Shown here one piece after another: positions 12,375 through 15,907 of a stretch of 33,858 nucleotides of DNA. The DNA is from a virus (lineage: Duplodnaviria > Caudoviricetes): positions 1-33,858 of IMG/VR virus record IMGVR_UViG_3300041584_000118; one strand, given 5' to 3'. A program made the position numbers and the translations under genes. A model generated the notes under the pieces. It was not told the origin of the DNA. It did no database searches and saw nothing but the letters and a program-made list of their open reading frames with translations. Numbering within the stretch: position 1 is the first letter of the stretch; each line of letters opens with the position of its first letter.

Positions 12375-12410
12375 CGAAATTGCAGAGGGGGCGGCTGGGA
12401 TCACAGGACA
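12375..12410 (-). promoter_or_regulatory. Candidate phage late promoter (TGTCCT-N22-CAATTTCG) for the tape measure gene
   Basis: Same motif and spacing found at four gene-module starts. Confidence 0.55.
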
Positions 12411-12445
12411 AAAAAAAGCCCGGACGCGGGGTCCGGGCTTTTTTT
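12410..12445. terminator. Bidirectional intrinsic terminator ending the CRISPR transcript
   Basis: AAAAAAAAGCCCGGAC-GCGGG-GTCCGGGCTTTTTTT. Confidence 0.85.
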
Positions 12446-12480: not shown

Positions 12481-12917
12481 GTTTCGAAGGATATGTACAG
12501 GAATAGTCGTTTTGTTCGAGTGCATCTATTTCTTCAAGATGGTTTCGAAGTTTACCAGAAAAAAAGGGTAAATAATATAGATAGAAAGTTCGAGTGCATC
12601 TATTTCTTCAAGATGGTTTCGAAGATTTCGTTTGTTGACTTCTTCAATTTCATCTTTTGTGTTCGAGTGCATCTATTTCTTCAAGATGGTTTCGAAGAAA
12701 GAGTATTCCAGCCGTTCGGCGGGGTGCGTATAGGTTCGAGTGCATCTATTTCTTCAAGATGGTTTCGAAGGAAACCCTGGACCGCAGATTATTGGAATCA
12801 CTGGACAGTTCGAGTGCATCTATTTCTTCAAGATGGTTTCGAAGGCACTCCCACGGCTACCAGCCGGCATATCAGACGGGGTTCGAGTGCATCTATTTCT
12901 TCAAGATGGTTTCGAAG
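12481..12917 (-). CRISPR. CRISPR array B: 6 full 37-bp repeats, 5 spacers of 36-37 bp, plus a 24-bp spacer and a 9-bp terminal repeat remnant
   Basis: Repeat on + is GTTCGAGTGCATCTATTTCTTCAAGATGGTTTCGAAG, starting at 12514, 12588, 12661, 12734, 12808, 12881; remnant gtttcgaag at 12481-12489. Confidence 0.97.
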
Positions 12918-13068
12918 GGCAGCCAATTCCGTTTAACCGCAGATTCTGCCATTTCCATAGCCCTATTCCGTTTCAAAACCATCATGTCAAAGAAAATAAA
13001 AATGCTTCGCGAGTGGCGTTAACCCTCACGCTAAGGCTGCCGAACCAGCCCGAAATGTTGTCAGTGGA
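12918..13068 (-). ncRNA. Second copy of the putative tracrRNA/leader
   Basis: Matches 14134-14284 with 2 substitutions, both outside the anti-repeat. Confidence 0.75.
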
Positions 13069-13251
13069 TCACTCCACTATAAGTTCAATGCCGAATTTAC
13101 GACATTTATAGGCGATTTTTTCTTTCAGGCCATAATACCCCCAGTTTCGCAGCAGAAAAGGCTCGCCCTGCTCAAACTCCTCCTTGGCCTCCTCCTGCTT
13201 GGCGGTCTGCTTTTTCAGCACCAGCTGCGCGCACTTGTGCTTCACGCAGTG
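13069..13251 (-). pseudogene. Duplicated 3' fragment (about 60 codons) of the cas12f-like gene
   Basis: Matches 14285-14467 with 2 substitutions; fused to a half repeat at 13251-13263. Confidence 0.9.
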
Positions 13252-14133
13252 ATGGTTTCGAAGTCCCGTGTCAATACCAAGTTGACGAACAGTTCGAGTG
13301 CATCTATTTCTTTAAGATGGTTTCGAAGTACAAAGGGAATTCCACCTTCTAGTCTTTCATTCTAGTTCGAGTGCATCTATTTCTTCAAGATGGTTTCGAA
13401 GAAAAAGGGCAAGTACTTTCCCACTCCAAAGGAAAAGAGTTCGAGTGCATCTATTTCTTCAAGATGGTTTCGAAGGTCAAAGGCAAGAAAGAACTGCTTA
13501 TCTCAGAAGCTGTTCGAGTGCATCTATTTCTTCAAGATGGTTTCGAAGCTGGCTTGTTTTCCTAGTTTAATGAGGGTGTCTAGCAGTTCGAGTGCATCTA
13601 TTTCTTCAAGATGGTTTCGAAGACGAACAGGTAGAGGTTTCGCGGGTCGTGGGTTTCGGTTCGAGTGCATCTATTTCTTCAAGATGGTTTCGAAGAGAGG
13701 AAGATTACCGACATGGCCCGTAAGTCCAGAAGTTCGAGTGCATCTATTTCTTCAAGATGGTTTCGAAGTACAAAGGGAATTCCACCTTCTAGTCTTTCAT
13801 TCTAGTTCGAGTGCATCTATTTCTTCAAGATGGTTTCGAAGATAAAAAGTTTCCTACAAAAGGACTGGACAATATAAGTTCGAGTGCATCTATTTCTTCA
13901 AGATGGTTTCGAAGAGCTCTTTGGGTCGAGTATATACCAAGATTTTCCGAGTTCGAGTGCATCTATTTCTTCAAGATGGTTTCGAAGCTATACGGCCAAA
14001 GCTATACAAGAGTTGCTAAAAGAGTTCGAGTGCATCTATTTCTTCAAGATGGTTTCGAAGAGGCTTGAAACTACAGAAATTCGTGGATGCGGGCAGGTTC
14101 GAGTGCATCTATTTCTTCAAGATGGTTTCGAAG
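13251..14133 (-). CRISPR. CRISPR array A: 12 full repeats plus 1 partial, 12 spacers (11 of 36-37 bp, one of 28 bp)
   Basis: Repeats start at 13292 (1 mismatch), 13365, 13439, 13512, 13586, 13659, 13732, 13805, 13878, 13951, 14024, 14097; partial at 13251-13263. Confidence 0.97.
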
Positions 14134-14284
14134 GGCAGCCAATTCCGTTTAACCGCAGATTCTGCCATTTCCCTAGCCCAATTCCGTTTCAAAACCATCA
14201 TGTCAAAGAAAATAAAAATGCTTCGCGAGTGGCGTTAACCCTCACGCTAAGGCTGCCGAACCAGCCCGAAATGTTGTCAGTGGA
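14134..14284 (-). ncRNA. Putative tracrRNA plus short leader
   Basis: Anti-repeat at about 14188-14221 pairs with the 5' 29 nt of the minus-strand repeat using G-U wobbles and small bulges; hairpin 14251-14266 has loop GUUCGG complementary to the repeat 3' end CGAAC. Confidence 0.8.
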
Positions 14285-15388
14285 TCACTCCACTATAAGT
14301 TCAATGCCGAATTTACGACATTTATAGGCGATTTTTTCTTTCAGGCCATAATACCCCCAGTTTCGCAGCAGAAAAGGCTCCCCCTGCTCAAACTCCGCCT
14401 TGGCCTCCTCCTGCTTGGCGGTCTGCTTTTTCAGCACCAGCTGCGCGCACTTGTGCTTCACGCAGTGGTCGACGAGCATTGAGGAGTACTGGTGGGCCTT
14501 GGTGGTGACGTAGTTTTTTTCCTTTTCGTGGAACCGATCCAGCGCCGCCAGCTTCTTTGTTCGGCCCTTGCCGCCTTCGTTGTAGCGGCTGGCCGCTTGC
14601 AGCCGCTGCAAAGCCCGCTGAATCTGGACGCGGCGGTGCAGGTACTCCTCCGCCGTGCCAATCATCAGGGTTTTCTTGCCAATGTTGGCAATGATGGGGT
14701 AGTCGGCCGACAGCTCCGCCGCGCACACCTTGCCCTCGAGCAGCTTCACGGGCGTAGGGGGCAGCTTGAACACCGCCAGCAGGAATATCTTGCCTTTTTT
14801 GAGCTGGATGCTGCTATCGCACAGCTTGTACTCGCCCGCCAGGGCGGAGTCCAGGATCACCTCGTTGCCGCTCAGGTCGCGGCCAAAATAGGTCTTGAAG
14901 CTCAGGTCGAACAGCTCAAACGTATAGTTGCCATCGTCGCCCTTTTTCCAGGTTCGGAACGATGCCGAGGGCATCGGCATCGGGATGGTGTCGCGGTAAG
15001 TTCGCAGGGACCGCTTCCCCATCCTGACCTCCTGTAACTCCTGCTTCACGGTGCCGCTCACTACTGTGTTGAGGGCGGAGAGCATGGCCATGGGAGCCTC
15101 GCCCTTGAAGGCGCGAGAGAGCACCTGGTAAGTGGTGTTCTGGCGGCTGGTGGTCAGGATGCCGTCTTCGTCTTTGTGAACATCGGCCAGCTTGACCTTT
15201 TCTTCGTTCACAATATAGTGGATGCTCTGGATTTCGGACTGGATATACTGGTGGGTGGCCACCCAGTTGGCGGCCTTGTGGCATATCCGCTGCCACTCGT
15301 ATATTTTCTTGTATTTCTCCTTCAACTCGGCCTTATCGGCCACGTCGAAGTTGAGTTGTATTTTGCGGGTTATTACGATGTCTTTCAT
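14285..15388 (-). CDS. cas12f: Cas12f-like (type V-F/TnpB superfamily) effector, predicted nuclease-dead
   Basis: Colinear by eye with Cas12f1 motifs (G.RSL.TY..IP, IL...L.GEYK, GG.GR.KK, H.YS..LVD, FL.NW.YY.L..KI.YK...GI); RuvC-I GIDLG reads AAELS (E225), RuvC-II Glu reads K320, ends before the zinc ribbon and RuvC-III; adjacent to tracrRNA and array. Confidence 0.88.
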   Translation of the reverse strand: MKDIVITRKIQLNFDVADKAELKEKYKKIYEWQRICHKAANWVATHQYIQSEIQSIHYIVNEEKVKLADVHKDEDGILTTSRQNTTYQVLSRAFKGEAPMAMLSALNTVVSGTVKQELQEVRMGKRSLRTYRDTIPMPMPSASFRTWKKGDDGNYTFELFDLSFKTYFGRDLSGNEVILDSALAGEYKLCDSSIQLKKGKIFLLAVFKLPPTPVKLLEGKVCAAELSADYPIIANIGKKTLMIGTAEEYLHRRVQIQRALQRLQAASRYNEGGKGRTKKLAALDRFHEKEKNYVTTKAHQYSSMLVDHCVKHKCAQLVLKKQTAKQEEAKAEFEQGEPFLLRNWGYYGLKEKIAYKCRKFGIELIVE

Positions 15389-15391
15389 AAT

Positions 15392-15907
15392 TCAGGAAGT
15401 GTATTCTTTTAGGAACTCGTCTAGCCCATTTTCTCGTCCATTTATTTCCTCCCAAAAAATCCGGAGTTCCAGCAGCACGAACTCTGCCTGGGCCAACGTA
15501 AGCCGGTTCAGCTTGCCCAAAAGCTCAGCCGAGTCGTAGCCGTGCCGGGTGCCGCTGCCATCAAGGTCACCGGCCTCCTTTATTTCGGCGTATAGCATCT
15601 CCCTGGCCGGAATGCCCATGCCGCGCACGAGTGTTCCGTTGAAGGCGTCGAGCAGGCCGACCCATTCCTGGGTGCTGAAGCTGCCCTTAATCTCGCGGCG
15701 GAGCGTAAGCCGCCGGGCTTTCAGCATGGCCTCCACCATTTCGTCGAGCAGGTCGGTACTGGTGATTCCCGTTTCGTGCCGCAGGCGGGTAAGGATTTCG
15801 GCGGCGGCGCTGATGGTGGCCTGCTTGCCCACGTCGGGGAAAGCTTGGTACAGGTTTTCGAGCGCCACAGGCTCTACGTAAGCCTGGATTCCTTTTTTTT
15901 GAACCAT
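15392..15907 (-). CDS. Hypothetical 171-aa helical protein directly upstream of cas12f
   Basis: Stop is 3 nt before the cas12f ATG; function not recognised. Confidence 0.8.
   Translation of the reverse strand: MVQKKGIQAYVEPVALENLYQAFPDVGKQATISAAAEILTRLRHETGITSTDLLDEMVEAMLKARRLTLRREIKGSFSTQEWVGLLDAFNGTLVRGMGIPAREMLYAEIKEAGDLDGSGTRHGYDSAELLGKLNRLTLAQAEFVLLELRIFWEEINGRENGLDEFLKEYTS

Follow-up and report, generated by a model that had tools for sequence, protein, structure and literature searches.

A guide RNA scaffold between a phage-borne nuclease-dead Cas12f gene and a CRISPR array with spacers matching the start of a probable host's cas operon

What kind of RNA lies between a small Cas12-like gene and a CRISPR array on a phage genome, and to which DNA could it lead its protein? 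The locus in question is part of a linear virus record of 33,858 nucleotides, which was analysed in its entirety (hereafter the window); its CheckV completeness is 34%, and terminase, tape-measure, structural and primase genes are present. The RNA locus belongs to the minus strand and is bordered by a 367-aa gene (14285-15388) and by an array with 18 full 37-nt repeats. Searches of the record revealed neither cas1 nor sigma region 2; given the incompleteness of the record, cas1 or rpoE could lie beyond its ends. Immediately upstream, a 171-aa gene (15392-15907, minus strand) ends 3 nt before the 367-aa gene, with which it is likely co-transcribed; it has no match in Pfam, NCBIfam or PHROG, and its Atlas matches are all under 0.9. 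Among the rows for metagenome runs carrying the locus, 23 of 24 are labelled salt lake, and none of the listed runs holding it is an RNA dataset. Viral contigs searched for exact copies of the repeat, of a stretch of one spacer and of a scaffold stretch gave 0 matches each, a P0005 search gave a single weak match, and a comparison of the array with INPHARED phages returned 11 records, which we regarded as chance matches (best E 0.5). The phage repeat is absent from the five genomes searched with up to 3 mismatches allowed, and the array has no self-target within the window outside the array itself.

Read on the minus strand, the region downstream of the gene comprises a first hairpin (14251-14266), a second hairpin (14224-14246), an anti-repeat (14188-14223) and a 54-nt linker (14134-14187), the whole being contiguous with the first repeat (37 nt, 14097-14133). 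An earlier note, made from the letters of the sequence, had proposed this architecture, and its individual elements were all recovered. The 12-bp pairing that it described between anti-repeat and repeat engages 14199-14188 and the 5' part of the repeat, with 11 Watson-Crick pairs and 1 G·U; the extension of this pairing through wobbles suited to the minus orientation gives a predicted duplex of 26 bp with 4 G·U pairs, at -25.0 kcal/mol compared with -18.7 kcal/mol in the plus reading. The proposed pseudoknot turned out to be one base pair longer than counted in that note: the six last bases of the repeat all find a partner (one G·U) in the 6-nt loop of the first hairpin (14261-14256). The second hairpin was found at 14246-14224, the spacing between anti-repeat and first repeat is indeed the 54 nt of the linker (14187-14134), and the 12-mer said to occur twice in the linker has its copies at 14189-14178 and 14150-14139. 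As a conserved element, this twin 12-mer was rejected: it was not seen in relatives on inspection and one copy is mutated in a duplicate of the unit (see below), so that no role for it is supported.

For 14097-14284, the folding z-score was -2.65 in the minus reading, a value matched by 1 of 200 shuffles, versus 0.10 on the plus strand, and the anti-repeat duplex stands at z -4.9 against shuffles. The linker alone has no folding signal (z -0.94). When the repeat is supplied as a free molecule, i.e. in trans, a co-fold with the scaffold is predicted at -60.1 kcal/mol. No Rfam family matched the scaffold region at gathering score. Note that a 9-mer of the anti-repeat (14203-14211) also occurs in the leader of a host CRISPR array described below (L170:18340-18348), the first repeat being about equally far away in both; the 9-mer resembles a boxA antitermination element.

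The covariation check that the earlier note had called for was performed on homologous loci. Starting from 139 related loci, 24 scaffold-plus-array modules were curated by hand, since automatic scaffold-array pairing mis-picked hairpins; near-identical loci were entered once, and three of 27 candidate modules (L041, L006 and the second module of L062) were dropped. By-eye adjustment moved three hairpin registers by 1 nt, and one further register was set from a motif; one repeat end was lengthened by a column, and repeat 3' ends were set by column agreement among repeat copies. The loop-repeat pseudoknot covaries in this set: loop and repeat end pair at six of six positions in 19 modules and at five or more in all 24, with two-sided changes at loop positions 2, 4, 5 and 6. 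The cognate pairing score was 138.0, compared to 120.4 ± 2.3 for permuted partners (0 of 20,000 permutations reached it), and 51.0, compared to 42.1 ± 1.8, for the 9 distinct combinations, both tests ignoring relatedness. In an alignment of 21 sequences, 98.5% of the cells are paired and 14 of 19 pairs changed on both sides, including 7 of the 8 pairs of the second hairpin, whereas slid partners pair in 32-51%. The window's own loop and repeat end both deviate from the common form, yet pair six out of six; this particular compensatory change is taken from the 24-module comparison, as the A2 alignment misaligns the 3' end of the window and cuts L060 short. Covariation among the related sequences thus supports the two hairpins and the pseudoknot, and the anti-repeat duplex is predicted. 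Nine of the 24 modules have a strong anti-repeat (z <= -3) and the other 15 are without a strong signal, which led us to drop the idea that a long anti-repeat is peculiar to this locus; the feature belongs to the clade. A profile built from the window's scaffold produced 155 matches, spread over 83 of 140 sequences and including rpoE loci. Like the window with its duplicated unit (see below), L003, L004, L007, L041, L049 and L062 each contain at least two separate scaffold-plus-array modules, and dCas12f with the same scaffold recurs on many further viral contigs (L004-L030), whose short arrays measure about 36+30 nt.

The array itself is split in two. Array 1 (13251-14133, minus strand) has 12 full repeats and 12 spacers and terminates in a 13-nt partial repeat; array 2 (12481-12917, minus strand) has 6 full repeats, 5 full spacers, a spacer of about 24 nt and a 9-nt repeat remnant. 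Of the 18 spacers 17 are distinct, and the 18 repeats show one substitution overall. The spacer that occurs twice is at 13329-13364 and 13769-13804, and run X3 has a version of it altered at its end. Between the two arrays lies a feature absent from the earlier note, a 372-nt duplicate (12880-13251, minus strand) of the dcas12f 3' end, scaffold, linker and repeat, which differs from the original at 4 positions, 2 of them in the linker. Contigs in runs X1 and X3 span the duplication junction, and the duplicated part is deeper there; by contrast, in each of runs X2 and X6 gene and scaffold are linked by one contig, which is what a single copy would give. The duplication, which supplies a second scaffold-first-spacer unit, probably represents a true polymorphism.

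Which strand is read? Four features point to the minus strand assumed in the earlier note: the folding signal, a TTR trinucleotide on the 5' side of the targets, a terminator-like hairpin at the far end and the degenerate end repeat. The hairpin (12410-12445, z -6.95) has A/T runs on both sides and is located between the array and the tape-measure gene; it is absent from the listing of a simple terminator scan. TTA or TTG was found on the 5' side of 7 of the 8 located targets in the minus reading (binomial p 5e-10 at a background of 0.035), a count that takes the spacer at 13623 by its copy in run X1, since its other copies read TCA and CCA; the target of the spacer at 13915 is flanked by CTT. 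TTR is 5' of the spacers in the minus reading solely, which argues against a plus-strand transcript and puts the flank where a Cas12 protein needs it. The likeness of the repeat to that of the probable host (22 of 37 bases identical, versus 21 of 37 in the other orientation) does not fix the orientation.

The 367-aa protein itself is likely a nuclease-dead Cas12f, predicted to bind DNA without cutting it. Indeed, its best PDB match is 9N9C, 'Nuclease-deactivated Cas12f' (E 1.5e-83, residues 6-366 on 8-364); E225 and K320 replace the RuvC D and E (RuvC-I and II) of the outgroup protein from L028, and the RuvC-III region is missing, the protein stopping where the 365-aa 9N9C chain stops. The intact RuvC triad and the zinc-finger C-terminus of active type V-F1 enzymes are both absent from it. 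In a FastTree tree of 88 proteins, retained from 131 ORFs after de-duplication and length filtering and labelled by hand for arrays, it is grouped (support 0.954) in a clade of 15, among which 10 arrays and 0 rpoE neighbours were counted, and the sister group holds all 33 rpoE-linked proteins. Likewise, no rpoE with a C-terminal extension was found upstream of dcas12f in the record, 34% complete as it is. The nearest relative in a genome is L060, whose record is titled Persicitalea (62% identity), where a single fused guide has the same loop and repeat end as the window but no array; judging from these features, L060 looks like a collapsed form of the window's system. A target search with the L060 guide was empty; downstream of it lies a TetR-RND efflux operon (L060:1517-7617).

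These results identify the RNA as the guide scaffold of a nuclease-dead Cas12f family, as far as homology and pairing allow, and the new part is its phage setting together with targets at cas8b. The RNA is of a known kind, given the array-linked dCas12f guides of Hoffmann et al. and the fusion path of Altae-Tran et al. The earlier suggestion that the first repeat and spacer could form a natural single-guide RNA is plausible as a prediction but not new, since such guides are the rule in the dCas12f protein family according to the accessible parts of both papers (PMC13472631, PMC10691335).

The array was then compared with three overlapping samples, comprising 301 genomes of the family of L060, 151 relatives and 401 genomes of the order. 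Two of the 17 distinct spacers have perfect matches, all in a single genome, G017, and both at its type I-B cas locus, whose order is WYL-cas8b-cas7-cas5-cas3-cas6-cas1-cas2-cas4-array (the cas6 being a cas6b). The gene called cas8b was identified by TIGR02591 (E 1.2e-20, below the cut-off) and by the neighbouring cas genes. Spacer 8 (13549-13585, minus strand) matches 37 of 37 bases over the cas8b start codon, the match beginning within the ATG, with TTA as 5' flank. Spacer 12 (28 nt, 13264-13291, minus strand) matches 28 of 28 bases, 216-243 bp upstream of cas8b on the opposite strand, with TTG as 5' flank. Both matches are therefore confined to 281 bp at the 5' end of the operon, where they provide candidate sites for a silencing anti-CRISPR. 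Spacer 8 has the sequence of the cas8b mRNA and so can pair only with DNA. In G135, a gene with the same N-terminus has the spacer 8 site with 5 mismatches and a CTA flank. In the stretch L170:8102-8319, the target of spacer 12 is within a 51-codon cysteine-rich ORF and overlies an inverted repeat; another such repeat, at 45-59 bp before cas8b, is one to which the neighbouring WYL regulator may bind. Host cas3 and cas6 are separated by a REP-associated tyrosine transposase-like gene (L170:14578-15561), which breaks up the operon and itself has an 18-nt tandem repeat insert.

G017 is a probable host, as suggested by these spacers and by one shared metagenome: run X6 contains the phage as well as contigs with both cas-locus flanks. 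The link is one-way, because no other spacer and no further part of the phage matches G017, and the 4 readable spacers of G017 miss the phage by 13-16 bases. The cas targets sit 10 kb from the host array, near which self-spacers may be enriched, and acquisition of the second cas-locus spacer could have been primed by the first. It is a single case: no target, at a cas locus or elsewhere, was found for the arrays of L062, L010 (2 genomes) or L004 (351 genomes, two weak matches). The target of a spacer from L032 was not found either.

Seven of the 17 distinct spacers point, less closely, to a mobile element that encodes an integrase, a primase and a RimK-family protein. The best of them is spacer 7 (13623-13658, minus strand), with 1 mismatch to a RimK-family gene; the others, starting at 14061, 13988, 13915, 13402, 12771 and 12551 (minus strand), were assigned through genome copies or flanks in runs. 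Mismatches to genome copies number 1, 5, 8, 9, 10 and 11, the assignment with 10 being weak, and one spacer was assigned solely by its flank in runs. Run X6 joins three of the element targets on one record. In G007, an integrase-primase-RepB-like-RimK element (L173:1-10248) ends in a tape-measure-like gene, 32% identical to that of the phage over 344 aa; the 35 kb read revealed no further relatives of window genes. This gene and the lack of others related to the window make the element appear satellite-like, possibly a satellite carrying its own tape measure. The flank of the spacer 7 target reads TTA in X1, TCA in X2 and CCA in G099, which could represent escape variants. In G099, a related RimK-family gene (L171:704-1994) lies beside tRNA-Asp at a contig start, after tandem repeats of about 41 nt. 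As to the remaining distinct spacers, three have unassigned flanks in runs and five had no target among the 24 of 58 loose ends displayed.

How could the array have obtained such spacers? The repeat of G017 is 37 nt long, as is that of the phage, and its spacers measure 35-38 nt. In Flavobacterium, acquisition in trans has been documented even though repeats and leaders differ (PMC8092290). The PAM preference of one characterised type I-B system is strongest for TTA and weak for TTG, TCA and CTA (PMC10551041, accessible part). The TTR flank may reflect only acquisition by the host, not a preference of dCas12f. L032 has the same scaffold and linker as the window but a different first spacer, and the far end of the array holds a repeat remnant and the terminator-like hairpin, so that growth at the scaffold end is likely. 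This suggests that the linker likely doubles as a leader; its alignment with the host leader is not significant (p 0.17).

Our preferred reading, which we think likely though by no means secure, is that the phage's dead Cas12f and its array bind the start of the cas operon without cutting it, which would block transcription of the probable host's CRISPR system. One minus-strand transcript would span scaffold and array and fold into the two hairpins and the loop-repeat pseudoknot, for which covariation argues, together with the predicted anti-repeat duplex. The protein would take up the first repeat-spacer in cis, as a natural single guide, and loading of those further along would be in trans, by way of the long anti-repeat; both cas8b spacers, at array positions 8 and 12, would need the trans route. 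By analogy with Fta dCas12f, the protein would bind about 14-16 nt of target beside the TTR flank, as a dimer. The host's I-B Cas1-2-4 proteins would add new spacers at the linker. The presence of dCas12f at the cas8b start would silence cas8b-cas7-cas5-cas3, and its binding to the primase and RimK genes would hinder the co-resident satellite-like element. More tentatively, with a confidence that falls a little short of even, we propose an adaptive anti-CRISPR, in which the host I-B Cas1-2-4 proteins, working on the phage's scaffold-linked leader, acquire spacers against the cas operon and a tape-measure-bearing satellite, and the phage's own dead Cas12f silences both. As insertion adjoins the scaffold, the newest spacer would become the natural single guide.

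The fact that seven of the distinct spacers lead to the integrase-primase-RimK element and 2 to the host could also mean that the system acts only against competing mobile elements, like Cas12m, the cas-locus spacers being harmless self-spacers picked up near the host array. The linkage of three element targets in X6 and the 10-kb distance between the cas targets and the host array fit this explanation, in which self-spacers would be kept because the effector cannot cut. However, both chromosomal spacers fall at the operon start, one across the ATG, and no further spacer matches G017; for a single uniform draw, landing in a 340-bp interval there has p ~6e-5 (the interval was set post hoc and hotspots are ignored). 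Besides, an effector that binds the element genes should also bind the perfect cas sites. We consider this explanation unlikely, albeit the one to be taken most seriously among the alternatives. It is improbable that the array RNAs are instead cut by host Cas6 and used by host Cascade to repress its own operon, in the manner of Cracr RNAs or mini-arrays, with dCas12f using the first guide only. The 37/37 match next to TTA on the chromosome should then direct Cas3 cleavage of the host, as is usual for type I systems; the last 8 bases of the repeat differ from those of the host at 3 positions and covary with the phage scaffold loop; and the anti-repeat would mask the repeat hairpin. On the other side, the repeat length, a hairpin before its last 8-9 bases and the TTR flanks fit type I-B, one cas spacer is 28 nt long and in one I-B system repression replaces cleavage when crRNAs are short (PMC10551041), and the Cracr RNAs set a precedent (10.1101/2024.10.29.618823).

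Less weight still goes to the possibility that function is limited to the scaffold-proximal spacer, with the remainder of the array serving as a record and duplication of the scaffold switching on a second guide. The second scaffold inserted in the array, the relatives with two or more modules and the 15 of 24 modules devoid of a strong anti-repeat signal are in line with it; against it, a 26-bp anti-repeat far exceeds the need of cis folding and the 18 repeats have kept to one substitution. Finally, homology to the Fta activator over the full length, and an 84-aa gene on the minus strand that spacer 12 faces at 327 bp, would agree with recruitment of a host sigmaE in trans and activation of transcription, as by Fta dCas12f. 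This we regard as very improbable: upstream rpoE is found in 0 of 15 clade members and no sigma region 2 in the record, a P0001 search of G017 gave no relative, and the targets are mostly within coding sequences.

With repression as the preferred reading, the locus can be set beside known systems. Hoffmann et al. (Nature 2026; PMC13472631, Ext. Data Fig. 1a,b) describe, in the accessible part, array-linked dCas12f systems that lack rpoE, with covariance-found guide RNAs upstream of the arrays and repression as the proposed function; in the sigmaE systems that they tested, tracrRNA-like species were not found. The window has the same nuclease-dead, C-terminally truncated Cas12f and the same covarying guide RNA between gene and array, and its protein is in an rpoE-less clade, the correspondence of this clade to the cluster in the paper's own tree being assumed. 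The targets named for that cluster in the text available are efflux promoters in bacterial genomes, whereas the window's system is phage-borne and aimed at a cas operon and a mobile element; its 37-nt repeat and 36-37-nt spacers also differ from the approximately 36+30 nt of most relatives seen. Fta dCas12f-sigmaE (PDB 9N9C; 10.1101/2025.06.10.658880) shares the protein fold, the truncation and a guide directly downstream; by contrast, it has a fixed single guide, a sigmaE partner and an activating role, where the window has an array and no rpoE neighbour, and it reads a 5'-G flank. In the collapse from Cas12f to omegaRNA systems by tracrRNA-repeat fusion, as set out by Altae-Tran et al. 2023 (PMC10691335, accessible part), a dead Cas12f, a tracrRNA near the repeat and a retained repeat 3' end are also found, and the window looks like a pre-collapse stage with L060 as its collapsed, single-guide sister.

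Phage-encoded silencing of cas genes has been described in two forms, in sources available in part. CasPR proteins, bound near the 5' end of cas8b, silence type I-B (10.64898/2026.02.23.707548); the window's system is likewise phage-encoded and predicted to bind DNA near the cas8b 5' end, but CasPR specificity comes from protein-DNA contacts, while here it would be conferred by the spacers acquired. Cracr RNAs and viral sgRNAs (10.1101/2024.10.29.618823; 10.64898/2026.06.01.729453) are phage guide RNAs that silence host cas transcription by redirecting the host effector through partial complementarity, whereas the window has its own dead effector and full-length spacers; the host-identical repeat 3' handle of Cracr RNAs and mini-arrays is not seen here, with 5 of 8 handle bases identical. 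Cas12m, which guards cells against mobile elements, and phage TldR, which regulates flagellin expression, are nuclease-dead RNA-guided repressors derived from TnpB/Cas12 as well, but of other lineages (PMC11013384, PMC13418256, accessible parts). The combination seen in the window was not found in the literature searched or in four supplementary files of PMC13472631, a search in which subscription papers are thinly covered; figures and the PNAS and bioRxiv supplements may list such loci.

The window and its array-less sister L060 form a matched pair for studying the collapse from dual-guide to single-guide Cas12f, and the array-linked dCas12f group gains a concrete candidate job with exact targets. 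Known transcriptional anti-CRISPRs are either fixed DNA-binding proteins, such as CasPR, or RNAs that borrow the host effector, such as Cracr RNAs and viral sgRNAs. If the adaptive reading is true, this phage would possess a programmable counter-defence, whose targets are updated through the host's own acquisition machinery and which would be able to track host escape mutants.
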